64,000 bases of DNA. Source: Euprymna scolopes (Eukaryota). The stretch lies in assembly GCA_053919585.1 (NCBI GenBank), contig CM132785.1; one strand, written 5' to 3'. The notes under the pieces are model-generated. The model ran no database searches. It was not told the DNA's origin and was given only the letters and a program-made list of their open reading frames with translations. Below are positions 16,331-63,830 of this stretch, piece by piece. How positions within the stretch are numbered: the stretch's first letter is position 1; each line of letters begins with the position of its first letter. A program made the position numbers and the translations under genes.

Positions 16331-19070
16331 TTTCTTGGAATTTGTATACAACTGGCTTACTAGTAAATGATCTGCACCATAATCATAAAACGAAAATGGA
16401 ATCAGGTCGTCTTTTCTATAGCGACAATGTTATCGTTCAACATACATAAAAAGAACAACATCAGTGTCCTTAGTATAAACAGAGGCTGAATAGAGTTCGG
16501 CATAGAAAACCTACTATAGGTCTCCTTTGTTTGGATATGAAACAGATGGTACCAATGTTATTTTGATCTTCACGTTATCTGTGATTGAATGAGAATCAAC
16601 AAATATTCCACCCTTCCATTGTCATCGAAATCGGTGAAATCGAACATTTTTTAATCAAATTCATTGATTGTCTTCTTTAGTTTAGTATACTGAGAAGAAG
16701 CTTTACTGCCTTCTCGCAGAGACTTATTCCACAATACATTGTAGTCTACATTGAACGGTATAGAATCTACCGTTGAATTTTATAAAATTATCTGTAAATA
16801 ATGGTTTTACTTAAAATGCAAACACCAGATATCATGGTTCAAGTGTGCTGTGAACAGAAACCTTCATTCCGAAGTGCCTCTGTCTTATTAAAGAACAAAC
16901 TGTTAATTTTATGAAATTATTTTTACAAAATCCCTTGAAAATATTCAACATACAAAAGTCAAATATCATGGTTCTCTAAAAAGAAACATTCATTTTGAAG
17001 GCGTCCTGGTTTATAAGAGAATCTACAGTTTATTTTATAGGCTGGGCTTTTCTGCTTGTACGGTGATAAAAATTCTCAACTGCACTTATGATGTTAGGTT
17101 GTATAAAAGTGTTAACGTTGATTAAAATCTTTCTTTCTTTAATTTTTTTTTTGCGATTTTCCATATTTATCAGGCGTATTTCGATACAAAACCTACGTAG
17201 AACCCTCACAGACACATCAATTAAATTTGTATGAATTTCCAAAAAAAAATCGCCTAAGCCGTTCTCGTAAGGAACAAATTCACACACACGCACATACACG
17301 CACACACACACAAAATGTTTTTTTGTATAATAGGATATATATATAAACACGCACACACATATATCTATATATATATAGAGAGAGAGAGAGAGAGAAAAAG
17401 AAAGAGAGAGAGAGGGAGAGTTATATACATAAGGAGACAAAAATCTTACTCTCTTTCACAACACTATATCATCCCCATTTTTTTGAATTTCCAACGACTT
17501 TTTTCCTTTCTGAAATAGAACAAAACTATATTTGCAGTATAATATTTATTATACTGGTGTTTTTTTGTTGTTTTTTTTTTGTTTCTTAATTTTATTCATC
17601 CCAAGGAAGTCTCGCAATAAAGACGAAACGTTGATGAACACATAGCTTGGTTTGTTTATTTTTATTTCTGTGCAAGAAGACATAAGTAGATTGTATTTAA
17701 TCAATATAGACTGGAGAATTAATTCTGTTTTCATTAATAAACGTTTTAGTATTTTGTCTAGTATTTTGAGATGAGGATTGGTTATTCGCATCATTTCGAT
17801 TCATTAAATAACTGTTGTAATGAAATTATAGACAAGGAAGACGACACATATGCCGGAGGATAAACAATTACTAAATAGACCTAGTATAGAATTTAACACA
17901 ATAGTGAACCCGTTAAATATAAATAATAGATAATATATACAGTAAAAAGTAAACAATAATGAGAACCGGCGTGTTAATGTGCTTGTGCTGTTCTACACAT
18001 AGCCGCTAACTAGCTTTTCCCAGTGTGTAATACATATTTAGTTTTCTATATGAAAACTAAATATGTCCATGTTTCCTCAATCAATTAAATTTTAAACAGA
18101 ACGAGACATGTAAAGCTTTAATATCTTTCATTCTAGGTGTTTCCTAATATTTAGTCTTCCTAAATATATGCCTTTATTTATCTTTTGTTTTCAGATAAAT
18201 CTTCATGCATGGTCAAATAAGTTCATGAAGCTATTAAACATTCAATTAATATAAAAATGGGAAAAGAGTCTAAAAAAAAGGTGCTAAAATATGTTGGCCA
18301 TTTCGGAAACTACGAAGTACTAATGATAACCTTTAATATAAATAAGGTACAGGACGATTATACACTTTCGAAAATATACGTTTTAAAATACTTTTCCCGG
18401 GAAACACAGCAAAGTTTCAATCAAATGTTTAAGGCCATTGTTAGTATTTAAGCTGTATCAAAGCAGCTAAATAAAATTGGTGTGGTTAAATCGCTTGATA
18501 AATATGACTCACATTAGCGCAATGGATAAATATTTCTTACAAAATCGGCCATTGTTTTTCGAACAATCCAATATCTATATAGAGAGAGCATGTTCATAAA
18601 TAGATACCGTATATATTGATTAAATCATGTTGCCATTTTTCTAAACCATTAAAGAATATTATGTATAATTTTATTCGCCATTTCATAAACCGGAACAAGC
18701 TACCTCAGCACATGTCGTTCGTAAGTAAAGCTAAAATGAGTTTCTGTTTACCCCTTGGGAGATTAGATATTCCGTTAGGTGGATTTTCNNNNNNNNNNNN
18801 NNNNNNNNNNNNNNNNNNNNNNNNNNNNNNNNNNNNNNNNNNNNNNNNNNNNNNNNNNNNNNNNNNNNNNNNNNNNNNNNNNNNNNNNNNNNNNNNNNNN
18901 NNNNNNNNNNNNNNNNNNNNNNNNNNNNNNNNNNNNNNNNNNNNNNNNNNNNNNNNNNNNNNNNTGAGTGTGGTATGTTAGTACATATTACATTGGGAAA
19001 GCAGAAAGGAGAAAATTGAGTGTATATTTCAAGCTGTTTATCCCGTAGGAAATGAAATATTCCCTTTGGC

Positions 19071-21679: not shown

Positions 21680-21736
<57 letters not shown>

Positions 21737-21739
<3 letters not shown>

Positions 21740-22501
21740 AACTCAATGGCTCTCGTCTTGGGAGGCCTAAAGTTTTACAAGTTTCTGGGCTTGACCTTTA
21801 CTCCTGATCTTAAGTGGAACACGTACATCAAATCTGTTGCCAAGGCCGCTGAAAAAATGGTGGGATCCTTCTATCGATCCAGTAGATATCTCACTGCTGG
21901 TACAATTCTCTCTATATATAAGAGCCAGGTACATCCAAGGATGAAGTACTGTTGCCACATTTGGTTGGAGCTGCTAGAAAGGACTTGTCCTGCCTTGATA
22001 GAGTTCAAAATAGAATTTGTAGCCTCGTAGGAGATGTCCTTTTCTCTTCCCTGCAAACTCTTTCTCATAGAAGAGATGTTACGAGTTTGTTTTTGCTGTA
22101 TCGTTATTTTCATGGCAAGTGCTCGTCTGAGCTCCAATCTATGCCCCCCCTATGCCCCCCCTCGGCAGACTTTCCAGATTTTCACAAGAAACACTTGCCT
22201 AGCTGAAAACACTATCAATAATTCCCCCACTCTGTGCCTAAACCTAAACGTAGATTTCATGAACAAAGCTCCTTTCTTGGAAGTGCACGCCTGGGGAACT
22301 GTCTTTCGTTTTCCTGCTTCCCAGCTGACTATAATCTGATTGTCTTCGACTTCAATGTAAACAAGTTTTTGATGAGCTGTTCCACTTAAGTTAACAAATT
22401 TACCGAATTTCAATTACTAACGATTATTATATTGCCCAATGAACTCTTAATCCTTATCCTCGAGTGGTCTTTGGGGCTTGATAAGTGGCGATGCCTATGT
22501 G

Positions 22502-22505
<4 letters not shown>
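21737..22505 (+). mobile_element. 5'-truncated, frameshifted LINE family A copy inside a (TA)n tract
   Basis: LGLTFTPDLKWNTYIKSVAK and LSHRRDV; 3' tail cttatcc..gagtgg..cttgataagtgg. Confidence 0.92.
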
Positions 22506-24294: not shown

Positions 24295-24327
24295 AAGGAG
24301 GAAAGGAAGGACATATATAATACACGC

Positions 24328-24370
<43 letters not shown>

Positions 24371-24975
24371 TTAATAATGTATGAACCGATGCTTCGACTA
24401 TTAACCGGCCTTTTACGTTAGATGAACAATCTATCAAGTAGAAAATATCCGGAAGCGAAGTGTTTTCGCTCAACCACATGCACATCGACTTGCTGTGATT
24501 TTTTTAAATCGTATAATTGTTCATTAATCTGCAAGTGGTTCAATAACAGGGTTGATGTCGTCAAGGAACGACACATTATTGGCGAACACAGAAACCCTTA
24601 CTAGCGCCACTCAAATATAAAGTACTATTTCGTAGGAGTGAAGTTGCCGTCCCCTCCATTAATATATGACGTAATAAGTCTAACGAAATAGCATTATATA
24701 TATATATATATATATAAATAAATTCCACAGCCAAACAACGTCGCAGCCCACAAGAGCCATGACAGTCAAAGAACCGGAAGCCCAAGACTCGAATTTCGCC
24801 CTCACTTGGGCTCATCAGTTAGACACATCCGAACTCAGGATTCGAAACCCAAGCCAGTCATTGTGCATGTGGTTGAGCGAAAACGCTTCGCTTCCGGATA
24901 TTTTCTGCTTGATAGATTGTTCATCTAACGTTAAAGGCCAGTTAATAGTCGAAGCATCGGTTCATATATTATTAA

Positions 24976-25024
<49 letters not shown>

Positions 25025-25053
25025 GCGTGTACTTTATATGTCCTTCCTTTCCT

Positions 25054-25057
<4 letters not shown>
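24295..25057. repeat. About 195-bp inverted duplication (24295-24490 / 24860-25057); each arm contains (TA)n
   Basis: ORFs 24231-24485(-) and 24759-25097(+) give nearly the same peptide, confirming the inversion. Confidence 0.9.
24772..24833 (-). ncRNA. Type I hammerhead ribozyme preceded by a tRNA-like B box
   Basis: cggatgtgtctaa-CTGATGA-gccc aagtga gggc-GAAA-ttcga-GTC-ttgggcttccg; B box GTTTCGAATCC at 24848-24838. Confidence 0.8.
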
Positions 25058-26853: not shown

Positions 26854-27769
26854 TTTGATGATTTGTATGTTGATAGCAAAGAATGCGTGATTATTTGCAG
26901 TCTATGCGTGTCTGACATTTTGCGAGATTAGGTCGAACTTGATTCAAATTTGAATCGATCTTAATTTCGTTGCTCTTAACGTTGGTAAATTTACAGACGT
27001 CGAAATTTGTGTTCACGCGAAATAAAGGACTAAATGACCTCGAACTGTTAATGCTACGAGAAAAGATTTAACAAGCGTCTCTGTTATTCTTAGCTGTTTC
27101 CAAACGGTACTCTATTTTATTGTCTGTTTTTGCGCCCCTTGGCCATGGATTTTAGTCTATTATTTTTAAAATAGGTTGACTGCACGAATAGAACAGTCTA
27201 CAGAACTGACTATTACATCCTCGACAAAAATCGTCTCAAAGACATTTCTTTATATAGTAGCAAATACTCTATGTGTTTAACGAAGTGTTTTATTAGTATT
27301 TAAATCTAGAAGAGCGCGTGGAAATTCTGCCGAACGAGAAATATATTTAATCAACAAATATGGTTTGATAAAACTAATACCTTTCTGGATAGTTTAAAAT
27401 TAATCTTGCGGAGAGAAAAACCACGCAACAAATATGAGTTTATCAACATTTATATAAAAATAGGGTTCGTTGTATTTTAAATATAGAACTGCTCCAAATG
27501 AGATAAATTGATAAGTACTAATAAAAGCTCAGAAAATAATATTGTGCTACAAAGTTCAATAAAAAAATTAAAAAATAATAAAATCACATTGTAAGAGAAA
27601 ATATTTAATTTATTCATTCAGTCCAGCACCTCTTGTCAGACAATGTTCTTTTTTTCTGTTTCTTTCGAAGGTTCCATTTTTATGAAGCGTTTTGCTGGTC
27701 TCTTTCTTCGGCGGAGAACCGCAGAACGTCGAAATTGCTGCGAGTTCTTTGCTCACAATATTATAGATT

Positions 27770-29375
27770 TTTTTTTTTACATAGGCGTCACCACTTATCA
27801 AGGCCGATAAGCCACTCAAGGATAAGGGTTAAAGAGTGTACAGTAGTCAAAAGCACAATAAAGTAATCGATAGTAATGGAAGTTCGGTAAATTTGTTAAC
27901 TTAAGTGGAACAGCTCATCAGAAACTTGTTCACGTTGGACTTGAAGACAACCGTATTATAGACAGCTGGAAAGCAGGAAAACGGAAGACAATTCCACAGG
28001 CGTATGCAGTTCTAAGAAAGAAGCTTTGATCATGGAATCTATGTTTAGGTTTAGGCACAGATAAAGAGTGGGGAGAATTATTGATAGTGTTTTCAGCTAG
28101 TCGAGTGTTTCTTGTGAAAGTTTGGCGAGGGGGGCCATAGATTGAAGCTCAGTCGAACACTTTCCATGAAAATAACGATAAAGCAAAGACAAACTCGCAA
28201 CATCTCTTCTGTGAGATAGAGGTTGCAGCGAAGAGAAAATGACATCTCCCACCAGGCCACGAAGTCTATTTTGAACTCTATCAAGGCAGGAAAAGTCTTT
28301 TCTAGCAGCTCCTGTCCATATGTGGCAACAGTATTCCATCCGTGGACGTATCTGTCTCTTATATAGATAGAGAATAGCATCAGCAGTGAGATATCTATTG
28401 GATCGATAGAAGGATCCCACCATTTTTCCAGCGGCCCTGGCAACAGATTTGATGTACGTATTCCATTTAAGATCAGGAGTAATGGTCAAGCCCAGAAGCC
28501 TGTCAAAACTTGAGGCCTCCCCAAGACGAGACCCATTCATTTTAATTGATGCCAGATGATGTAAAGATAGAAGCTTGGTTTTAGATGCATTAAAAGTAAC
28601 CAGCCACTCCTTTCCCCATTGTACAACGTGCTCAAGATCAGAGGAGAGAGAATCGGAGAGAACTTGGTCGTTTACTGTCTTAGATGTGCTACCATAGATG
28701 GTAGTGCCGTCAGCAAAAATGTCTACGAATGATGTAAGGATGTGATTTGGAAGATCATTAATGTAGATCAGGAAAAGAGTTGGGCCCAGGATGGACCCCT
28801 GAGGGACTGCAGCATTTATACTGTGAGCTTCTGATTTTTGCCCATCAACTACTACTCTTATGAACCTATCGGAGAGAAATGATTTAATAATTGAGAAGAC
28901 ATTTCCAGCTATACCATAGCTGGAGATCTTGTGAAGTAAACCTTTATGCCATACCCTATCAAAGGCCTTAGATATGTCAAGAGCAATTGCCCTAGAAAGG
29001 AAGCCTTTGTCAAGAGATTCATTAATCCTATGAGATATAACCGTTAGCATATCTGCGGTAGATCTTGCAGAACGGAAACCATATTGTGTGTCGCTAAGAA
29101 GGTTATTTCTGCTGAGGTGGTTGATTATTTCTCTATTTAATATAAATTCCAGCAGCTTCCTCATGACATTCAGGAGACTTATTGGTCTGTACTGAGAGGG
29201 AGATGACTTATTATCTGAGTCCTTAAATACAGGGCATACAGATGAGGTTTTCCAGGGTGTTGGAAAGCACTTCTCCTTAAGGCAACGTTTAAACAGTTTT
29301 GTAAGTATGGGCGCTAGTTCTGGTTGAAGTTTTTTTAGTACTATAATTGGAATACCGTCAGGGTCAGTGATCATA
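27770..29375 (-). mobile_element. 5'-truncated LINE family A copy
   Basis: RT ORF plus 3' UTR stem-loop and poly(A), read as a T run at about 27770. Confidence 0.95.
28097..29374 (-). pseudogene. LINE reverse transcriptase, inactivated
   Basis: QYGFR, LDISKAFD, PQGSILGP; catalytic motif reads FADG instead of YADD; small deletion and terminal frameshift. Confidence 0.9.
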
Positions 29376-29902: not shown

Positions 29903-31636
29903 AACCCTATGCGACGAAGGCCATCAACTCCCCATATTTCCTCCTATAACACAGAACAAGCTAGGTAACATACAAATATCCGTGCAGGAGGTCGCCAAAC
30001 TAATAAAGAACCTAGATTCCAGTAAAGCAACTGGCCCTGATGGCATCCCAATTATAGTGTTAAAAAAGCTTCAACCAGAACTTGCTCCCATACTTACGAA
30101 ACTATTTAAGCGCTGCCTTAAGGAGAAGTGCTTTCCGACTCCCTGGAAGACCTCTTCAGTTTGCCCTATATTTAAGAATTCAGGTGATAAGTCATCTCCC
30201 TCTCAATACAGACATATAAGTCTCCTGTGTGTTATGAGTAAGTTGCTGGAATACATATTAAATAGAGAAATAGTCAACCACCTCAGCAGGAATAACCTTC
30301 TTAGTGACACACAATATGGTTTCCGCTCTTCAAGATCTACCGCAGATGTGCTGACGGTTATATCCCACAGGATAAGTGAATCTCTTGACAAAGGCTTCCT
30401 TTCTAGGGCAATTGCTCTTGACATATCAAAGGCCTTTGACAAGGTATGGCATAAGGGTCTACTTCACAAGATTTCCAGCTACGGTATAACGGGAAATGTT
30501 TTCTCAATCATTAAATCATTTCTCTCCGATAGGCTCATAAGAGTAGTGGTCGATGGACAAAAATCGGAGGCCTGCAATATAAATGCTGGAGTCCCTCAGG
30601 GGTCAATCCTGGGCCCAACTCTCTTCCTGATCTACATCAATGACCTCCCTAAACACATACTTAAATCATTCGTTGACATCTATGCTGATGACACAACTAT
30701 CTACAGCAACACATCAAAGGCTGTAAATGACAAAGTTCTCTCTGATTCTCTCTCCTCTGATCTCGAGCGCGTGGTTCAGTGGGGGAAGATGTGGCTGGTT
30801 ACCTTTAATGCATCCAAAACCAAACTCCTATCCTTACATCATCAACGCTCTGATCCCCGGCTGGCATCAATTGTGATGGATGGCTCTCGTCTGGGTGAGG
30901 TTCCGTGTTTTGACAAGCTTCTGGGTTTGACCTTTACTCCTGATCTGAAATGGAACACGTACATCAAGTCTGTTGCCAAGGTCGCTGGAAAGATGGTGGG
31001 ATCCTTCTACCGCTCGAGAAGATATCTCACTACTGATGCAATTCTCTATCTATATAAAAGCCAAGTACGTCCAAGGATGGAATACTGTTGCCATATCTGG
31101 GCAGGAGCTGCTAAAAACAGCCTATCCTGCCTTGACAGAGTACAAAATAGACTTCGTGGCTTAGTGGGGGATGCCCTTTTCTCTACCCTGCAACCTCTCT
31201 CCCACAGAAGAGACGTTGCGAGCCTATCCTTGTTTTATCGTTATTTCCATGGCAGATGCTCGTCTGAACTCCAATCTCTGGTCCCCCCTCGCCAATCTTT
31301 CACGAAAAACACCCGTCTAGCTGAATCCACTCTGAAAAATTTCCCCCACTCTATATCTGTGCCTAAATCAAAACGCGGATTCCATGAACAAAGCTTCTTT
31401 CTTAGAACTGCACGCCTGTGGAACTCTGTTCCATCTGCCTGCTTCCCTCCGGACTACAACTTGGATGTCTTCAAGTCCAATGTTAACAAATTCCTAATGA
31501 ACCGCCCCCTTAAGTAAACACTTCAGCAAATCTCCTCACTAACTTAATGTACTTGCAATAAGCCTTATCCCTGAGTGGCTTCCGGGCCTTGATAAGTGGT
31601 GATCACTGTGTAAAAAAAAAAAAAAAAAAAAAAAAA
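29903..31636 (+). mobile_element. 5'-truncated, young LINE family A copy (CR1/L2 group, CR1-Zenon-like C-terminus)
   Basis: Uninterrupted RT ORF, 3' UTR cttatccctgagtggcttccgggccttgataag, pure poly(A) at 31612-31636. Confidence 0.96.
29982..31517 (+). CDS. Non-LTR retrotransposon reverse transcriptase (ORF2 C-terminal part; no endonuclease; start is an artefact of truncation)
   Basis: KATGPDGIP, QYGFR, LDISKAFDKV, GVPQGSILGP, YADD, LLGL, RPRMEYCCHIW. Confidence 0.93.
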   Translation: MQEVAKLIKNLDSSKATGPDGIPIIVLKKLQPELAPILTKLFKRCLKEKCFPTPWKTSSVCPIFKNSGDKSSPSQYRHISLLCVMSKLLEYILNREIVNHLSRNNLLSDTQYGFRSSRSTADVLTVISHRISESLDKGFLSRAIALDISKAFDKVWHKGLLHKISSYGITGNVFSIIKSFLSDRLIRVVVDGQKSEACNINAGVPQGSILGPTLFLIYINDLPKHILKSFVDIYADDTTIYSNTSKAVNDKVLSDSLSSDLERVVQWGKMWLVTFNASKTKLLSLHHQRSDPRLASIVMDGSRLGEVPCFDKLLGLTFTPDLKWNTYIKSVAKVAGKMVGSFYRSRRYLTTDAILYLYKSQVRPRMEYCCHIWAGAAKNSLSCLDRVQNRLRGLVGDALFSTLQPLSHRRDVASLSLFYRYFHGRCSSELQSLVPPRQSFTKNTRLAESTLKNFPHSISVPKSKRGFHEQSFFLRTARLWNSVPSACFPPDYNLDVFKSNVNKFLMNRPLK

Positions 31637-34116
31637 GGATAACAAATACATATTTATTTGGCAAATTTGATCTACCAACTTGGAGATCAGTGACGACAAT
31701 AAAAATAGTTCTGCATTTTTTTAGATGAGCATTGACAATCTGTATTATGACGGCGGTGTTTGTTAGATTCACAGCGTTTCTATCTAGCATTTTTAACAAT
31801 CTTCAATAAAAAAAAAACAGTTAAAAATAAATATGCTGCAAGTAAATGTTACCAAAGGCAAGAAAACTTTATCTTCTACTTACCTAGATAAGTGTTTTGT
31901 GCGTTAACTTATTTTAAAGCGGTCTTTATTTTGTTTTTGTTAAAGAAGAAAACTAAAGTAGTGTCACTTCTGCTGTTAGAATGGAAATAAATGGCGGTGT
32001 CCTTGCAGCCATGTTCAGCCTCGATATGTGCTCAAAAATCGAAAATTAAACAAAACACAATGGTAAGATGTTACATTTTCGCATGATTAGTAACATTTAT
32101 TGTGTGTGTTTCTATAAAAACATACGATAAATGGAATAGATATAGTGCAATAATTAATTTTATCCGATACCTCCCAAATCTGAAATTATCTTTCTTTGTT
32201 AGAACTCTCTTGGCATTCTGATATGTATAAAAAAGTTCATGTTTACTTGTGTAAGTTTATTAAAGCTTCATAAGCTATTTTGTATCAATAGTTATCTGCG
32301 TTTATATGTATAAGCTTATTAAATCTTAATAAGCTTGTTTGCGTTCCCACACTGCTATTAAATATATGTTTCTTTCTTTAGATTAAATTGGAATGTACTT
32401 CTGTTGTTACAATTGCCATCATGATTTTTTTTCCATATGAAGAAGCCCCATTGCTATGATAATTGAAGCCGCAACCATTATTAGCTTCCTTCCTGACAGC
32501 GGATGAAGTAATATACTATGAATCTTCTTGTTATCAATGTAATATTTATTTGCATTGTTACTCGGTACGCAACTGTGAACCGAAACGTTAGAGGCGGGAA
32601 AAGCATGTGCACACAAAAGATACGCCGGGATAATGGAAATCAAATTGTGGGTGTATAACAAAGAAAACAGGAAATTCTGCCAAGTATAAAAGCTGATGTA
32701 AATTATGACCAATCGCAAGCGACTAATCACTTCACTGCGGATTTGCACCGGAAATGGGAAACAAAATAAAGGGTTTATTGGTAGATATAGTTTTTAATTT
32801 ATATATATTTCTTTTACTTTTTGAAAACGACAAATCAATGGTAATGTGTGCACGTGTTTCATTATCTAAACCTTTTTTTTTTTGCTATCAACCATATTTT
32901 ACGATTGTGCGTGCGAGTATGTTTTCTATATTCTGCGAAACGAAGATTTAATGCAAAATAAAAAACATTTGTAAAGGGAAACGAGAGGAACGAAACAAAA
33001 TAACTGACAAAAGCCAATGCCTGCATCAGGGAAACATGTCATGATTATTAANNNNNNNNNNNNNNNNNNNNNNNNNNNNNNNNNNNNNNNNNNNNNNNNN
33101 NNNNNNNNNNNNNNNNNNNNNNNNNNNNNNNNNNNNNNNNNNNNNNNNNNNNNNNNNNNNNNNNNNNNNNNNNNNNNNNNNNNNNNNNNNNNNNNNNNNN
33201 NNNNNNNNNNNNNNNNNGTACATAATATTCATGCTATATATTAAATATCTTATCCTAATACTTCTGACTGACATATTAAATAATAGCAATATCACTCAAA
33301 GTTACAACATCAAATAATAATTCGATCAGTAACATAGATCCACCCTATAACTGAGGTATTAATACTAATACTTCAATTCGTTCTAATATTGACAACATCA
33401 CTCATAACAAATTAGAGACACTGTTTAAACTTCATACTTATATTGCGTCTTCGTCCATCCCTGTGAAATGGTGCATTTTAAACCATAAACAAGTCCTTTC
33501 AATAACGAAAACAATGATAAAAATTTTAGAATTCCCGTTCTGTTTCTTGCTTTCTTGGCTTTACTAATATGTAGAAGTTTAAATGTAACCGAAATCCCTA
33601 CATAGTTCTCTGTAAACATGGTCCCAATAAGTAGTCCCTCACGTTGGTTGGGGTAAAAAATACTAAAATAGGTATCTACATATATGCAGACATATGCATT
33701 ATTTATCCTCCTATATAAAAACTAGCTGGACGCCCGGCGTTGCCCGGTCGTACAATACGCTTAAACATATTTTAATTTATGCAGATTGCATATGTATTAT
33801 TATAGAATCAATCATCTATTGAATATTATATATAACGAGGAATAATTGTTCCTGATGGATTAATTCGCAGAAAATATTTTTAAAAAATGCTTTTAATATA
33901 ATGATAATGGCGTTCATCAAATTCTCTTGTTGTTTGTTTACAGTATCACGTCAGCTGACATGTGGTTTGACGATGAATGGCCTGAAAAAGTCACTTCTAA
34001 TTAATGTTTAGTATCAAAATATGCAAACGAAGAAATGATTTGCGGCGATTTTAAATAGTACCTCTTCTTTTATCGTAAAATGAACTTATCAATAAGAACA
34101 AAGTAACATGAAATGG

Positions 34117-34171
34117 TGAGGTACACCCAGAATTGAACAGAGAATCATTCGACCTATAGTCGAATGCTCTA
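34117..34171 (-). pseudogene. 3' portion of a degenerate tRNA-Cys-like gene
   Basis: tagagcattcga-ct ata gg-tcgaa...ctctg ttcaatt ctggg tgtacctc; perfect anticodon stem; resembles the metazoan tRNA-Cys segment AGAGCATTCGACT. Confidence 0.7.
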
Positions 34172-34347
34172 AAAAGGCTCCTTCAGTCTTTTACAGACTA
34201 TGGATACCCACGAAGGGGTGCCTGCGCATGAAATTTTTGTAGCAGGAGGCGCGCAATTTCCAACCAGACATCTCTTGAGTCGCAATTGTTAAATACCAAT
34301 GGCAAGTAAAGTATATGTACAAGACGACTGGAAACTAATGCCGAGAT

Positions 34348-34464
34348 AACATACAGCGCCTAGAATTTCCAAATAATCACCCATCTGGTACTAATCAGGC
34401 ACAACGTTGCTTAACTTCGGTGATCTGACGAAAACCGGTATCTCAACGCGATTATGCCGCCAAC
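34348..34464 (-). pseudogene. Degenerate full-length 5S rRNA-derived sequence
   Basis: accggttttcgtcagatcaccgaagttaagcaacg...ttagtaccagatgggtga...gcgctgta follows metazoan 5S rRNA colinearly. Confidence 0.88.
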
Positions 34465-34476
34465 CGTGTGTCAACG

Positions 34477-34505
34477 CGAATACTCTACCACTGAGCTATA
34501 TAACC
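34477..34505 (-). pseudogene. 5' portion of the same tRNA-Cys-like gene
   Basis: ggttatatagctcagtggtagagtattcg (A box TAGCTCAGTGG). Confidence 0.7.
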
Positions 34506-35910
34506 AGACGGCAATAAATCTAGGAGGTTTTAAGAAGAAATGATTTGCTGAGATTTTAATTCTTTTCTTTTGGCCGGTGTAATGGAAAATATTTCCCTTT
34601 AAAAATTATTTTATCTATAAGAAAGAAACAGTATTTTTAGGATCGGATTTTTCGATTCTTGATATTTATCGCATGAATTTCTGTACAAAACATATCTAAG
34701 AACACTGCCAGACATATAATTTGGCTTTGTGTGAATTTTACAAAGGATAGACTCAACCGTTTCGAAACATATAAGGAACTCACACACACAAATGTACTTT
34801 TATATAATAGTAGAGCTAGTGACGGTGATAGAGATTACATTTGTAATATCTATGATTCTGAGACCTTGAAAATCATTTATAAACTGAATTATGTGTTTCT
34901 AAAGACGAATATTCTGAAAGTAAAAGTCTGAAAATATGTTATCCAACAACGAGGGAACGCTAAGATGTCTTATAAAGAAAGTAAGTCCTTGTTGAAAGCT
35001 TTGGTAAATGTCCGAAACAGGGCATGTGTAAATGTGTATGTCCGTGTTAGCAATCGACGAAGGAGATATCTGCAAGTACTTATACTGGTTTCATTACTTG
35101 CTTTGAATTAATCTTTCCTTTTACTGTATATGTGCGCATAACCGCCGTTGAATATCTGCCTGTGGATAGCTTTGCATATACGCGTGGATACTTGTGCGTG
35201 TATCGCTTTATACTTGTACGTTAATACATCGCTTTTTTATTTATTTTATTTAAATGTGTTTTGTAATTATGTGTCTGTTTACTTCTATGTCGAAGTGTTT
35301 AATATCGTTTTCATTCGTCTTCTGTTCTGGACTCTTACTCAGCCAGGTCCTTCGGATTTCAATATCCTTTTGACGAAGAGGTGTCGTTTTTTCCCGGAGG
35401 CTATGTGAACAACTTGAGAAGCGATCGCTATGAGTAACTGTTGCGCGTTGTTCAATGGCATGAGAACAAATAGATGGACAACTGAGAGGATTCGATGAAG
35501 ATTAATGAGAAAAAATGAACACAAGAAGTGAAGAGGGAATAAAAAGAAGAGATGGAAAACAAAATTATATAAAGGAAAAAAAGGAAAAAAAGAATGAAAG
35601 AAGGGAATGTGCCTGAAAAAGACGAGTGACAGAGAGAAAAAAATTGAAAGAAATATATTCATGGTTTATGCAATGTCAGAAGAGAAAAAGAAAAAGTTCG
35701 AAATAAGGGAAGTAAAGAAATGCCTGGAAGAAAACTCCATTTTGTATGAAATAAATAAAAAAATAATGAGTAAACAAAATCTTTATAGCGTTAGGTATAT
35801 TTATATGTTTATATATTTTTATGTACAGGATTAAACCCTAAAATAATTAACTGATCATTATGTATTTTCTGACAATGTGCTAGGCTAAAGGGGTTCAAAT
35901 ATATTTTATA

Positions 35911-40294: not shown

Positions 40295-41007
40295 ACTTCA
40301 TAAAGGGAATTGGTAGCGACAAAAAGTGTATTTCATTGTAAGTTACAATTGTTCAATACCGGTTAGACCAATTCAAGCGTTATGGCGTTTGAAAATCTTC
40401 ATATAACCAGACTTTCTTCAGACTACAGAACATTATTTAATAGTGTTACCGCCTGGATCATGTTCATTGTGTATTTCTTGTGGCCTGGAATTGCTATGTT
40501 CTTTGGTGAGAAAGTGATTTCCTCTTTTGAGAACATGATGTTTGCATTAGTGTATTTTTCAGCTCAAAATAATGAGCAGTATAAACTTGTTTGTTTATTT
40601 GTTTAAAAAAATTAATTATGTGAAATAAAGAAATATAGAAATCTAATTTAGGAATTCAATGAATAGAATTATTAAAAGATATTAAATGGCCACGGGATTT
40701 TATGGAAACTACTTATGACAGGTTTTTAAATAATGTTACGAAAATTAGGCGATATATTAATATTTATATATGCTCTTGACAAAGGATGCGTCCAGGATAA
40801 ATGTTTTCGCATGGTTCCTTTCCTTTAAGGGAAATACCTTTAAATAATGTTCTATTGTTAAGTGTTTTTTATTCGAGAAGTCTGAAGAAAGTCTGGTTAT
40901 GTGACGATTTTCAAACGCCATAATGCTTGAAATTGTCCAACCGGTATTGAAACAATTGTAACTTACAATGAAATACACTTTTTGTTGCTACCAATTCCTT
41001 TTTGAAG
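40295..41007. mobile_element. MITE-like element with about 130-bp inverted arms (40295-40425 / 40879-41007)
   Basis: ggaattggtagc.acaaaaagtgtatttcattgtaagttacaattg...ataaccagactttcttcagact and its reverse complement. Confidence 0.8.
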
Positions 41008-45054: not shown

Positions 45055-45845
45055 TTACGCTAAAAGCTTGTTTCTTTCAATAACTACAAGAAACTTTCTC
45101 TACCACCAATAGCGATGGCCAAGAACACATTACCTGAAAGTACTTCCTTTAAACTCCTCGGCCTAACGTTTACTGGGAACATGAACTGGAATCCATACAT
45201 TGAGAGCATTGCCAAGGCTGCTGCAAAGAAGGTGTGCTCTCTCTACCGTGCTAGAAAATTACTTACGCCTGAAAGAATCCTGTACCTCTATAAGGCCACT
45301 ATTCGCCCATGTATGGAGTACTGTTGTCACATTTGGGCTGGTGCATCTGCTGCTTGTCTCGTCTCTCACTCCTGGACAAAGTTCAAAAGAGAGTCGCCAA
45401 CCTGATAGGTCCTGAACTGTCATCTAGGTTTCAGCCTCTGTTCCAGCGACGAAATGTTGCATCCCTCTGCCTGTTCTACAAATACTTCAATGGTGAATGC
45501 TCTGACGAACTACAAGCACTTGTACCTCCTCGACATGACTACCCCCGACAAACCCAACAAGCAACTAAGTTCCACCCTTTTACAGTAGAGATCCCTAGGT
45601 GTAAGAAAGCCTTTTAGTCCAATAGTTTCTTCCCCAGAACTGCAAGTCTTTGGAACTCTCTTCCGGAATTCTGCTTTCCCAACTGTACTGATATGCAGAA
45701 GTTCAAGTGTATGTGAACAAACATCTTTCTACTCATCTCCCTTCATAATGCCCCTGCAAATTATGTCCCCGGTAGTAGCCCCCTACTTCAAAGTGGCACT
45801 GTGCCTTGTTTGGGGTGAAAATTGAATAAAAAATAAGAAAAAAAA
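45055..45845 (+). mobile_element. LINE family B 3' part, frameshifted
   Basis: LLGLTFT, IRPCMEYCCHIWAG, RRNVASLCLFYKYF; A-rich tail. Confidence 0.92.
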
Positions 45846-47525
45846 GAAGAGGTACTATTTAAAATCGCCGCAAATTATTTCTTCCTTTGCATAATTTAAA
45901 ACTAAATATTAATCAGAAGTGACTTTTTCAGGGCATTCATTGTCAACCCCAAATATCAGCTGATATGATATTGTAAACAAACACAGACGGAATTTGATGA
46001 ACGATATTATCACTATTACTTATTTATTTACTTTGCAAATTAGTCCACCGGGCAAATTATTCCTCGTAATCTTTCTATATATCTGAGTGAGAATGTGTAT
46101 GTGAGAACACTTCTCAACGTATATACTCAACGAATTTTTTATCTAGAGACTTGAAATTCGGTATATAGGGTATTCAGATATGTGAAAAATATTTTAATCC
46201 GTTTTCATCCGGAAAATAGGCTGTTAAAGAGTCAAAATTGAAAACTTATAACGTGGGGGGAGGGGTCATTGGATTTATATTTGTTTGCTAACTGTTCCCC
46301 AAATGCGTTGCTTGAATGGTTCATATGACAGATTCATTTTGTTAAAAGTAAATAGGTTTGAAAACACTTTTTATAGATCGTGTCAAGTCGGCCTAATGGT
46401 TATAGTACTTGACTCACCGTCTTTAGGTTTTGGTTCTGATCTTAGTAAACTATTTAGAAAACAAAAACGTAATGTTCGCATGCACATATCTCAGTTACTG
46501 TACAAATTAGCATATAATATTTATGCGCATTTATAACGGCCTGCTAATCTATATATCTATAAAATTGAGAATCTGTGTATGTGTGAGGACACTCCTCAAC
46601 CTATATACTCCACGAATTATTGATCTAGAGACTTGAAATTTGGTATATACGATATTCAAACATGTGGAAAACTTTTGTATCGGGTTTCTATCCGGTAAAA
46701 GGGCTGTTAAGACGTCAAAATTGAAAATTTGATACGTGGAGGCCGTCGGATTTTTATCTGCTTGCTAACTTTAGGTTTTGTTTTCGATCTCAATTCGATC
46801 GCGTAGTTATTTTTTTATTACAAGAAAGGAACTGTTTAGAAAAAAACATAATACTAGCATGCACATAGCTCAGTTTCTTTCCGTTTTTTATTTCATTTTT
46901 TAAGAAATTAAACGTTACGTTTAATACCGGGCAACGCCAGATACATCTTCTAGTATATCTATAAAAGAGCGAATGTGTTCTCAACCTATATACTCAACGA
47001 GTTTCTGATCTACAGATTCAAAAGTAATATATAAGGTATTCAGATATGTGGAAAATTTTTAATCAGGTTTCATCCGTAAAAATGTTTGCTAAGATGTCAT
47101 AATTGGAAGAGTTGGAGTATTCGTATTTTTATTGATTTGTCAACTGTTTCACGATTGCGCATATGCGGTCAAGAAACATGATAGCTTCTTTATGTGTAGA
47201 ATAATTTTTTTAAACACTTGGTAAATGTCGTGTAAAGCTGCTGCAATGGTTATCAATGTCGTTAGGTTTTGGTTTCGATCTCAACTCGAGTATTTTTTAC
47301 TTCCCAGAAATGAACTGTTTCGGAAAAAGTAACACTCGCATGCGCATGCTTCAGTTTCTGTATTAATTAAAGTATAATAGTTATGCGTATTTTTCCACCG
47401 GGCAACTCCGGTTACTGGGTCCTGTTAGTATATATTAATCAGTAAATGATTGATTCTATAATAATACATACGAAATCTGTATGAATTAAAATATCATGTT
47501 TAAGCTTATTGTACGACCGGCGAAC
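45846..47525 (+). mobile_element. Helitron family B copy split by a tandem trimer of family A Helitrons
   Basis: 45846-46069 and 47429-47525 are the reverse complement of 33745-34066. Confidence 0.75.
46070..47428 (+). mobile_element. Head-to-tail trimer of Helitron family A (units start at 46070, 46548, 46954)
   Basis: Each unit has ctcaacNtatatactcMacga near its start and ends CTAA/CTAG/TTAG; units 2 and 3 keep ccgggcaac hairpin remnants. Confidence 0.8.
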
Positions 47526-52497: not shown

Positions 52498-52576
52498 ATT
52501 TTCGATCTCAATTTAGATACGAAGTCTTTTGGACAAACAGTAACATCATGTAATAGTTTTTTAAGATCAGTGTTTG

Positions 52577-52663
<87 letters not shown>

Positions 52664-52743
52664 ACAAACACTGATCTTAAAAAACTATTACATGATGTTA
52701 CTGTTTGTCCAAAAGACTGCCTATCTAAATTGAGATCGAAAAT
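52498..52743. repeat. About 80-bp inverted repeat whose spacer is a (TA)n tract
   Basis: ttttcgatctcaatttagata...gatcagtgtttgtc / gacaaacactgatc...tatctaaattgagatcgaaaa. Confidence 0.9.
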
Positions 52744-54738: not shown

Positions 54739-55026
54739 TACTTAAACCTGTCAGGACCTTTCCAAACCTTTCATCCTTTTCTTTTTTCTCTTTTTTTCTT
54801 CCTCCTTTAAAATTTTATTGTCCCATCATCATCTGTTACTCTTAAGTACGAATTTTTAGAATAAAGATTTTAGATTTGAGACATTTTAACTTAGCAAATT
54901 AAAAACCATTTCACTTGTGCTGACTTATAAATATAATTTAATCACCAAAGTTGAATCTATTTTTTAATGACTTTTCTGCTTCGTTTTGATAAAAAAAAAT
55001 TCCTTTATTTGAATAAACTAAATAGC

Positions 55027-55428
55027 TATTAGGTACGTTTGAAGCCGAAACAACGCATTATTACAAAATAAACAGATATTTATTTTGTTTTAAATTAATA
55101 TTGAAATTTATAAATATATTTCGAAGATACACTTTATCATCAGTATGTCTTTCTTTCTTTTCTTTTTGGCCATGTTGTTGCTGGAGCATAGAATCAGTAG
55201 AAGTCCGTTTGTTGTTTTTACCACAGTCTTTTCAAATGTCGGAACCGTGTGTTGGTCACGCGGAATAAACGTTAGGGTTTGTGTTCCTTGATAGAAGTGC
55301 TGGTTGGGTTTAGATAAAATAAATATGTACCGAAATATATTCATAAATTTCAATATTAATTTGAAACAAAATAAATATCTGTTTATTTTGGAATACTGCG
55401 TTGTTTTGGCTTCAAACGTACCTAATAC
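55027..55428. repeat. About 97-bp inverted repeat pair (55027-55123 / 55331-55428)
   Basis: tattaggtacgtttgaagcc...aatatatttcg and its reverse complement. Confidence 0.85.
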
Positions 55429-56001
55429 GTATTTATTTTATGCAAACTAAACCATCGCTCCTATAAAGGAACACAAATCCTCTTTTATTTTTTATTTATC
55501 TGTCTCCAGATATCTTTTGTTTATTCTTCACAAATTGTATTTAAAAAAAAAAACTTGTTATAATCAAATATTATCCAACCAAAGGGAAACGAAGGAAATG
55601 TTTGCATGGGAATGTTACCTGGTGCCTTCGAAATATTACAATAGCCGTTGGATCTTTTTACCTCTCCACTACCAAGAACTTCCATCTCAGGATTTACCAC
55701 GCATTTTGTATTTGAAGTCCAACATCCTTTTTTTCTGCCACGACGTCAAATTTCCTTTATTCTATGTAGCTAAAATGGTTTAAAAACTTTAAAAACATTA
55801 AAAACTTTTAATTTTTCTACGCTTATTGCCTTTAGCAAATACGGTGCAAACCATTTGCTAATATTTTTCCTCTGAGGAAATGAGTAAACACTGAAAACTC
55901 ATGGGTTAAGGAAATATATTTTTAAACTGTATTCTTTGTTTGCAAATAATAAAGATTCTATATTTGAAAATTAACCTTTTCAAATCATAAAATTTTAATA
56001 C

Positions 56002-60092: not shown

Positions 60093-60706
60093 AGTTTCTA
60101 GAATTGTAATGTTCTATTTCTATATGCGTATTCTTCATTGAGGGACCGATTGCATGAAGACGTTGCTATGTATACAATTACACAGATAGATACAGTTTAT
60201 AACACGGGACTGTTCTTTAAATAAAAAGACCAATAAACTTTTCCTGTGGGGGTGAATCAAACAAAGGGCACATACCTTCTTCCATTTTTATCTTCCCTTT
60301 CATAATTCTTCCATAGTTACCACGCTGCAAACATATTCTTCAGCCGAAGGAAAACGCCATGACGTTAAATTATATTTCTTTGTATACATATTTATTAATC
60401 TTCCTGAGTCTCCTCGGAGTTACGCAACCGCTTTTTTTCCAGTCTTACATTGTCTTTACTTAGCCAGTCGAAATGCGTCCACGACTAACGGTCAAACATT
60501 AACTCCGTTGCTATCTAACTCTGATTTTCTGCTTACGTGTATATATATGAATCTCTCTTTTTTATGTGACGTCACAGGTCAATCCTACTACTGTTTTGGT
60601 AACATTTTAAAGGTGTTTATCTATTCTTAATTACTTATTGTTTGTGTTATTTTATTATTATATATTATTTTTTATTGGAATCCTTTGAGATGAGCACGTT
60701 GTATAT

Positions 60707-61020
60707 TCATTTATTTATTTGCAAACTGGTATCCTAATCTCCATAGTCATTGTTTCACCACGTTTCGGCCAACTATTCATTTGGCCATCTTTATGTGGTT
60801 AACTTCGACAGGATAGGAATCAGGCCAGAGGATTAGTCGGCCAATGAGACAACAACAAATATGGAAGGCATTAATTGCTGAGGATACAGTAAATAGATTC
60901 AGCATTCCTATCCCGTCGCAATTAACCACCTGAAGAAGGCCACATAAATAGTTGGCCGAAACGTGGCAAAACAACAACAATGAAGATGAGGATAACAGTC
61001 CGCAAATAAATAAATAAATA
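60707..61020. mobile_element. Penelope-like inverted repeat pair with outward-facing hammerhead-like motifs
   Basis: Arms 60707-60820 / 60904-61020; plus arm cac-CTGAAGA-aggcca...tggcc-GAAAC-GTG. Confidence 0.75.
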
Positions 61021-63495: not shown

Positions 63496-63830
63496 TCTAC
63501 TTATATATAAAAGGCACTTTGTTTGTGTGTGTGTGAGAGCGAAAGTTCCCTGTGGATACAAAAACAGCTGGGTCTATTTTTTTAAATTTCACAGAAATGT
63601 ACCTTACGTGTCATGTGCCGTTCTTAGTTTGTATCGCAATGCCTCCGATAAGTGTCGCAAACCGATAATCGAAAAAAAAAACCCATTAAAGAAGGAACAG
63701 TCCGATTTTTATACAGCCTAACATCACAAGTGCATTTGAAAAGTTTTATCATCGCACAAACAGAAGGGCCCGGCATATAACTCAACAGAAGGTTTTTGGA
63801 TAAGACAGAGCTGCGTTCGAAATGAATTGA
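63496..63830 (+). mobile_element. Helitron-like element family E, 5' part
   Basis: Same 5' end and gcacaaRcagaaRggccc block as 35911-36205. Confidence 0.55.

Follow-up and report, generated by a model that had tools for sequence, protein, structure and literature searches.

In the available sections of PMC5786205, three short interspersed elements (SINEs) join a head derived from 5S rRNA to a piece resembling the 5' untranslated region (UTR) of an RTE LINE and to an RTE 3' end: CoeSINE5 of the coelacanth, SINE-1_Pmo of the python, and HaSE3 of the cotton bollworm. They are about 300 bp long and dispersed, and they carry target-site duplications (TSDs). Here, we describe a 5S-headed SINE (SINE3) with these same properties in the window, a 64,000-nucleotide stretch of DNA from Euprymna scolopes, where it interrupts a pseudogene derived from tRNA-Cys (Table 1). 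Because this design is already known, that of the window SINE is not itself new; the element differs from the other three, as far as their description sets them apart, in its mollusc host and its body resembling the RTE-3_AMi/WALLSI type, and also in having its own derived 5S head, which is common to other families of the same genome.

Other described elements share parts of this architecture. The body of the window SINE contains three blocks collinear with the 5' UTR of RTE-3_AMi, an alligator RTE, and with the marsupial element WALLSI1A (by eye, from the available part of the PMC5786205 supplement); collinear blocks CTTGCCACTGG and TCACGCGCA are found in WALLSI1A/WALLSI2 and RTE-3_AMi, whose 3' end is also similar by eye. 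In the available sections of the same source, the heads of WALLSI/RTE-3_AMi are tRNA-derived or unassigned, whereas the window SINE head is 5S, and WALLSI elements and the window SINE likely originated independently from related RTEs. The Ceph-SINEs of squid and cuttlefish (SepiaSINE, Sepioth-SINE, OegopSINE, and IdioSINE2) also carry an RTE 5'-UTR piece but, in the available sections of PMC5786205 and PMC4824008, combine a tRNA head with a CORE. The window SINE has neither the tRNA head nor the Ceph domain that define this group, and the 23-nt Ceph motif, which is unlike its body, has no match in a random 1 Mb of the genome. No cephalopod SINE3 is described in the literature that we searched in full text, and none is named in the available sections of PMC4758252, PMC3531059, PMC10886601, or PMC4824008; the sequences of Repbase, Dfam, and SINEBase lie outside that search and may hold the family. 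Decapodiform genomes are described as nearly SINE-free in the available sections of PMC13218726 and PMC8967140.

The repeat that hosts the tRNA pseudogene resembles non-autonomous Helitrons in that it begins with TC and ends in CTRR, inserts between A and T, lacks a TSD, and likely contains captured DNA; a 3' hairpin like theirs is predicted. Like this host, a putative Helitron-linked cluster in Arabidopsis has tRNA-Cys as its cargo; according to the available sections of PMC10701932, three prediction tools gave no reliable Helitron there and the tRNAs are local, whereas the host repeat here has clear ends and about 10^4 dispersed copies. Those sections also state that no non-coding RNA cargo would precede a Helitron-captured tRNA, and no animal Helitron with a captured tRNA is described in the literature that we searched in full text.

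We conclude with high confidence that the window contains a copy of an abundant, dispersed SINE3 family, likely copied by an RTE, and that its place within the tRNA-Cys pseudogene of a Helitron-like repeat is most likely due to chance. The SINE family and the host repeat family may both be undescribed.

Table 1. Coordinates of the window SINE, its host repeat, and related loci in the genome
Feature	Position	Strand	Remark
TSD, 5' copy TAGAGTATTCG	34477..34487	(-)	1 mismatch vs 3' copy
TSD, 3' copy TAGAGCATTCG	34161..34171	(-)	identical to host family consensus
Junction extra, 17 nt	34460..34476	(-)	partial SINE-head copy; putative microhomology join to target
5S-rRNA-derived head	34349..34459	(-)	Rfam RF00001
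Body, like RTE LINE 5' UTR	34222..34331	(-)	RTE-3_AMi / WALLSI type, by eye
3' end with stem-loop, then TTTT	34172..34205	(-)	like terminal ~30 nt of RTE LINE family
tRNA-Cys-derived pseudogene, 5' part (29 nt)	34477..34505	(-)	in host repeat
Second 11-mer and 3' part of tRNA pseudogene	34118..34171	(-)	anticodon ATA
~90 nt like spacer 3' of tRNA-Cys in 227-bp array	34024..34117	(-)	likely captured DNA
Host repeat, 5' part	34477..34816	(-)	nhmmer model 2-351 at 34813-34477
Host repeat, 3' part	33722..34171	(-)	short GC hairpin, then CTAG^T end; nhmmer model 341-794
tRNA-Cys(GCA) tandem array	L253 = G000:C18:103416913-103419943		227-bp period
Dispersed tRNA-Cys cluster	L246-L252 on C16		
Native 5S rDNA array	L255-L263 = G000:C18:127.4-128.2 Mb		270-bp unit; same contig as tRNA-Cys array
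Other 5S-headed SINEs, different bodies	L009:817, L076:1122; L051:1989, L119:8364, L233:856	(-), (-); (+), (-), (+)	
More 5S-headed SINEs, different bodies	L089, L185, L200, L225, L226, L228, L230, L007, L191, L220		

A dispersed family of 5S-headed elements

The insert measures 305 bp (34476-34172, minus strand) and is flanked by two 11-mers identical at 10 of 11 positions; the insertion of about 305 bp with an 11-bp duplication reported in the initial annotation is therefore real, with one mismatch between the 11-mers. Used as a query against the genome (G000, 5.9 Gb), the insert gave 9364 first-look candidates, and all 39 other scored matches are 85-88% alike to it across nearly its whole length, the first 17 nt excepted. 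A consensus of 295 bp was built from 29 fetched copies, whose flanks are unrelated in every case and mostly AT-rich; copies are 93.6-97.3% alike to this consensus and the window copy 91.9%. In a random 1-Mb sample (100 loci, each of 10 kb and set at round positions along the large contigs), the SINE profile had 30 matches, 17 of which reach the family body while 13 cover the head alone or lead into other bodies. From the 17 matches we estimate about 100,000 copies of the family (95% range, 58,000-161,000), and from the same sample about 177,000 5S-headed elements of all kinds (119,000-253,000), which occupy at least 0.5% of the sampled bases.

Of 61 near-full copies, 15 carry a TSD, compared with 20 of 732 mismatched flank pairs, and TSDs are above chance in this family (five loci that were re-fetches or duplicates were excluded from the scan, and the window TSD lies outside its offset). 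They range from 8 to 20 bp, some of them of low complexity; the window duplication has 11 bp. SINEBase counts as SINEs elements that are short (<1 kb), interspersed, and present in at least 100 copies (PMC3531059, available sections), and at 295 bp, with 17 matches per random Mb, the family agrees with this description in size, dispersal, and copy number. For SINE3 we asked for a 5' end that matches 5S rRNA with 60% identity or more along 60 nt or more, a body unrelated to the RNA gene, and TSDs of variable length. The consensus head is identical to the native 5S gene at 94 of 113 positions; the window head, proposed to be 5S-derived in the initial annotation, is recognized as such by Rfam RF00001 (34464-34348, minus strand; 57.3 bits, E 2.3e-9); the body matches none of 10 native 5S loci; and the TSDs are those counted above. 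The earlier suggestion of a possibly undescribed SINE3 is thus supported by a dispersed and abundant family with a 5S head, TSDs, and an RTE-type body and tail. The body of about 175 nt, by contrast, had been called unique and is in fact repeated genome-wide and similar to RTE 5' UTRs.

A head derived from 5S, lying inside a repeat that itself appears to capture DNA, could also point to a captured native 5S-tRNA rDNA unit, as the initial annotation allowed, or to a processed 5S pseudogene. We consider this almost certainly wrong, because the native 5S array of 270-bp units holds neither a tRNA nor a match to the body at any of 10 loci. The insert moreover has a constant body of about 180 nt, TSDs, and some 10^5 dispersed copies, and it is absent from the site in all 48 other host copies.

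The window SINE has an extra 17 nt at its 5' junction, which repeat head positions ~13-28; when the last part of the duplication is included, the agreement extends over head positions 7-28 (20 of 22 nucleotides). This extra is the short 5S-like repeat that had been noticed ahead of the head, and among the 61 near-full copies it occurs in the window copy alone.

The SINE consensus keeps the 5S internal control region and has no run of four T. Pol III could therefore read through the SINE, whose head is predicted to act as an internal promoter for this polymerase. In the window copy, a TTTT has arisen within the head at 34434, and this copy is likely dead. SINE-like contigs are present in four RNA or presumed-RNA runs, although contigs cannot show transcription. 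Both the SINE and the host repeat were found in thousands of contigs, in DNA-type runs of four out of four organisms, one of which is possibly the source species; no contig compared from those runs covers the whole stretch with the insertion.

The same derived 5S head is found on different bodies in other SINE3 families, at a density of 13 per random Mb; BLAST supports two pairs (90% and 70%), and about three more groups were recognized by eye. Some of these elements end in (TGGA)n and look RTE-like. Closer to the window type (A1) is a sister subfamily, A2 (L082:4485(-), L086, L106, L071, L047, and L084), which has a different 3' stem-loop with a TTCG loop and whose body is closer than the A1 body to the RTE-3_AMi 5' UTR.

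A probable RTE partner

A 5S head followed by a body like an RTE 5' UTR and an RTE-like 3' end indicates that an RTE LINE likely moves the SINE. The genome contains an RTE family with an open frame of 1084 amino acids and an RVT_1 domain, and at 30 of 30 loci this family ends in a motif like the last 30 nt of the SINE. The match is modest (p about 0.002-0.006): its score is reached by 4 of 2000 shuffles for the SINE family tail and by 12 of 2000 for the window copy. A motif of the SINE body is matched at 14 of 15 positions about 90 nt upstream of the RTE open frame, and the whole body compared with the RTE 5' region is not clearly above shuffles in any of 12 copies. Given the modest tail match and a body within the range of shuffles, we regard this RTE family as a relative rather than the exact partner. 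The 3' end in common with an RTE LINE that characterizes bipartite-RTE SINEs is accordingly present here by way of a relative of the partner.

A comparison of the SINE 3' end with non-LTR tails, proposed in the initial annotation, thus yielded the terminal motif of an RTE family but not the exact partner. Tail and body profiles run on 1.6 Mb of fetched DNA returned SINE pieces only. A pattern for the exact tail lacking an upstream SINE had 41 matches; no LINE 3' end was present among the 30 that were examined, one of which is a SINE inside an RTE fragment. The 3' stem-loop noted earlier does fold, but only weakly (z -1.97, with 10 of 200 shuffles equally good), and the last 114 nt, whose fold was tested alongside it, are not above shuffles (z -0.44).

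Three other groups were considered as partners and rejected. An I/Nimb-like family with RNase H has no tail in common with the SINE (11 loci), nor do CR1/L2-like copies (12 copies, two of them in the window) or RTE fragments bearing DUF6451 (30 loci, one of which was read on the wrong strand).

The RTE family that ends like the SINE is young (L294-L305, e.g., G000:C15:96139500-96146000): it shows 91-97% protein identity among the listed copies, several of which have open frames of about 1084 amino acids and a (CA)n tail. The I/Nimb-like LINE family with an RNase H domain (L133-L142 and L149), also young, has an open frame of up to 1231 amino acids. The window itself contains CR1/L2-like copies at 30030-31622 (+), 27768-29368 (-), and 21736-22504, the first two being 82% alike and in opposite orientation.

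The tRNA-Cys pseudogene and its Helitron-like host

When the insert and one 11-mer are removed, ARAGORN at a relaxed setting (-ps80) rebuilds a 72-nt cloverleaf whose anticodon is ATA and whose acceptor and T stems contain mismatches; at its default threshold, the program finds no tRNA in the window. The tRNA-Cys gene of the initial annotation, and the scan of the empty site that it proposed, therefore stand as far as the rebuilt cloverleaf goes, but the sequence is a Cys-derived pseudogene within a multicopy repeat, lacking the GCA anticodon and intact stems of a functional tRNA-Cys. It is identical to native tRNA-Cys(GCA) at 54 of 72 positions, and the host consensus at 62 of 72. The anticodon is ACA in 30 of 49 aligned rows of the host family.

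Both flanks of the insert are multicopy and form a host repeat of about 795 bp, for which a genome-wide search gave 4662 first-look candidates. Copies bearing the tRNA occur twice per random Mb, and the resulting estimate of 12,000 (1,400-43,000) is based on these two matches. The tRNA is uninterrupted across the insertion site in each of the 48 other copies, the empty sites for which the initial annotation had advised looking. The 5' end of the family is most often A^TC, with ATC at 14 of 28 junctions (AGC in the window copy). At the 3' end, CTAG followed by T was found in 20 of 36 cases, CTAG or CTAA followed by T in 24 of 36, and T as the next nucleotide in 32 of 36. No TSD was seen in any of the 19 copies with both ends. 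The family thus has a 5' TC, a 3' CTRR, insertion between A and T, and no TSD, as Helitrons do, and is likely a non-autonomous Helitron-like repeat of roughly 10^4 copies; the GC hairpin predicted near its 3' end folds no better than shuffles (z 0.01). At 87.3% to its own consensus, the window copy of the host has diverged further than that of the SINE (91.9%), the age order that nesting requires.

A motif of 25 nt occurs twice in the host repeat, once on each side of the tRNA (23/25). Relatives of the host without the tRNA segment, or matching its ends alone, are present at L103:7400-7695 (-) and in the window at 45842-46070, 47376-47525, 17148-17295, and 63497-63668. Two more 5S-headed SINEs lie in host-repeat copies (L076:1004-1122 and L077:923-1088), near the 3' end and outside the tRNA. 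The window also contains palindromes and inverted repeats typical of MITEs or DNA transposon ends (52498-52743, 60704-61020, 24295-25057, 40296-41007, and 55004-55451).

An intact tRNA-Cys motif has 428 matches genome-wide, mostly, among the matches listed, in the 227-bp tandem array. Host positions 313-470/487 match eight units of this array by BLAST (E 1e-24 or better), and the likeness is collinear, beginning 10 nt before the tRNA and continuing for about 90 nt past it. Against the array spacer, the host consensus scores 58, which none of 2000 shuffles reaches (maximum, 38); against the sequences 3' of 10 further native tRNA-Cys genes, it scores 18-42. The presence in the host of about 90 nt resembling the array spacer argues for capture of DNA and not of a mature tRNA, and the C18 array is the likely source of the cargo, with capture presumably running from array to Helitron.

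It is also conceivable, though improbable, that the insert is a SINE as described and the host tRNA instead an old tRNA-SINE head or a retro-copied tRNA, or that the C18 array was itself derived from the Helitron. ACCA and a T-run follow the pseudogene, the likeness to the spacer is of moderate strength and lies in AT-rich sequence, and the flanks of two unrelated tRNAs reach 41-42 compared with 58; Helitron-driven tandem duplication has also been raised for the Arabidopsis tRNA-Cys cluster (PMC10701932, available sections). However, collinear likeness to about 90 nt past the tRNA is not expected if a mature tRNA was copied. The tRNAs of the array have retained GCA and agree with dispersed genes, the host consensus departs from them at 10 of 72 positions, and one host relative without a tRNA exists (L103). 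We therefore retain capture from the array as the preferred account of the cargo.

Elsewhere in the genome, we noted two clusters of molluscan haemocyanin genes (G000:C30:36.4-36.7 Mb and 102.8-103.1 Mb; L337-L352) with 53 functional-unit matches. For one last functional unit, the scores are 819 bits with PDB 4yd9_C, 719 with 1js8_A, and 487 with 8tnv_A; for a second unit, they are 722, 693, and 472 bits with the same three, which are entries for squid, octopus, and gastropod, respectively. Together with the size of the genome, these scores indicate a decapodiform cephalopod.

Insertion into the pseudogene and its implications

Tx1-clade non-LTR families and Dada transposons are elements that target small-RNA genes. 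The window SINE resembles them in having inserted within a tRNA-like sequence, and the initial annotation proposed that it may target tRNA genes. In this reading, the SINE3 or a sub-lineage of it would target the junction of the D stem and anticodon stem, as Tx1-clade elements target small-RNA genes, and the clean duplication of the window copy within tRNA-like sequence speaks for it. We find this very unlikely. In an excision test with 155 cuts for each of 61 near-full copies, a tRNA-like fold arose in 69 cuts of the window copy, 2 cuts of one other copy, and none of the remaining 59; only 1 of 61 copies clearly rebuilds a tRNA, there is no second case, and the 29 sets of flanks described above are unrelated. 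Two exact patterns were used, one joining the SINE tail to the tRNA site and the other a tRNA A-box to the SINE head; in the 5.9-Gb genome, either pattern has a single match, at the window locus. These patterns cover Cys-like A-boxes only, miss some tRNA types, and catch about one-third or less of diverged junctions (tail 20/29 and site 23/48; head 15/29 and A-box 17/48), but the tail-plus-site pattern also covers intact tRNA-Cys genes and finds the SINE in none of them.

Chance alone predicts about 14 SINE insertions in the 72-nt pseudogene (range, 1-84), given some 100,000 SINEs and 12,000 hosts. The sole insertion bias seen for the SINE is toward (TA)n, which flanks 21 of 61 copies and 4 of 10 copies from the random sample, compared with 7.6% of random positions, and which may reflect a preferred target or expansion of the repeat after insertion. 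The window SINE differs from Tx1-clade and Dada elements in that it does not recur at its site and in that its 3' end is RTE-like, not Tx1-like. With the targeting claim failing, the locus offers no new targeting mechanism, and a chance landing remains our preferred explanation.

The locus could have arisen as follows. A non-autonomous Helitron would have taken up a tRNA-Cys gene with about 90 nt of downstream spacer from the tandem array, and its later dispersal would have placed the tRNA, now a pseudogene, at roughly 10^4 sites. Pol III, acting from the 5S internal promoter, would then have produced a SINE3 RNA whose RTE-like 3' stem-loop was recognized and bound. Reverse transcription of this RNA would have started at a nick in a single copy of the host, and such a target-primed event would leave the 11-bp duplication. 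At the 5' junction, the cDNA may have been re-primed or have jumped template and annealed by microhomology, giving the 17-nt extra.

The host repeat is a cleaner candidate than the Arabidopsis cluster for Helitron capture of a tRNA. Taken jointly, the findings might reflect an unreported squid/cuttlefish radiation of 5S-headed SINEs, about 177,000 here, missed as "unclassified," in which one derived 5S head was swapped onto three to six bodies, several of them RTE-like, together with a clear case of tRNA-array capture by an animal Helitron that gave about 10^4 pseudogenes; we hold this combined interpretation to be evenly balanced between right and wrong. The 5S-headed elements qualify the claim that decapodiform genomes are nearly free of SINEs but do not overturn it, because SINEs still make up a much smaller share than in octopus. 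Both repeats will inflate counts of 5S and tRNA genes in such genomes.
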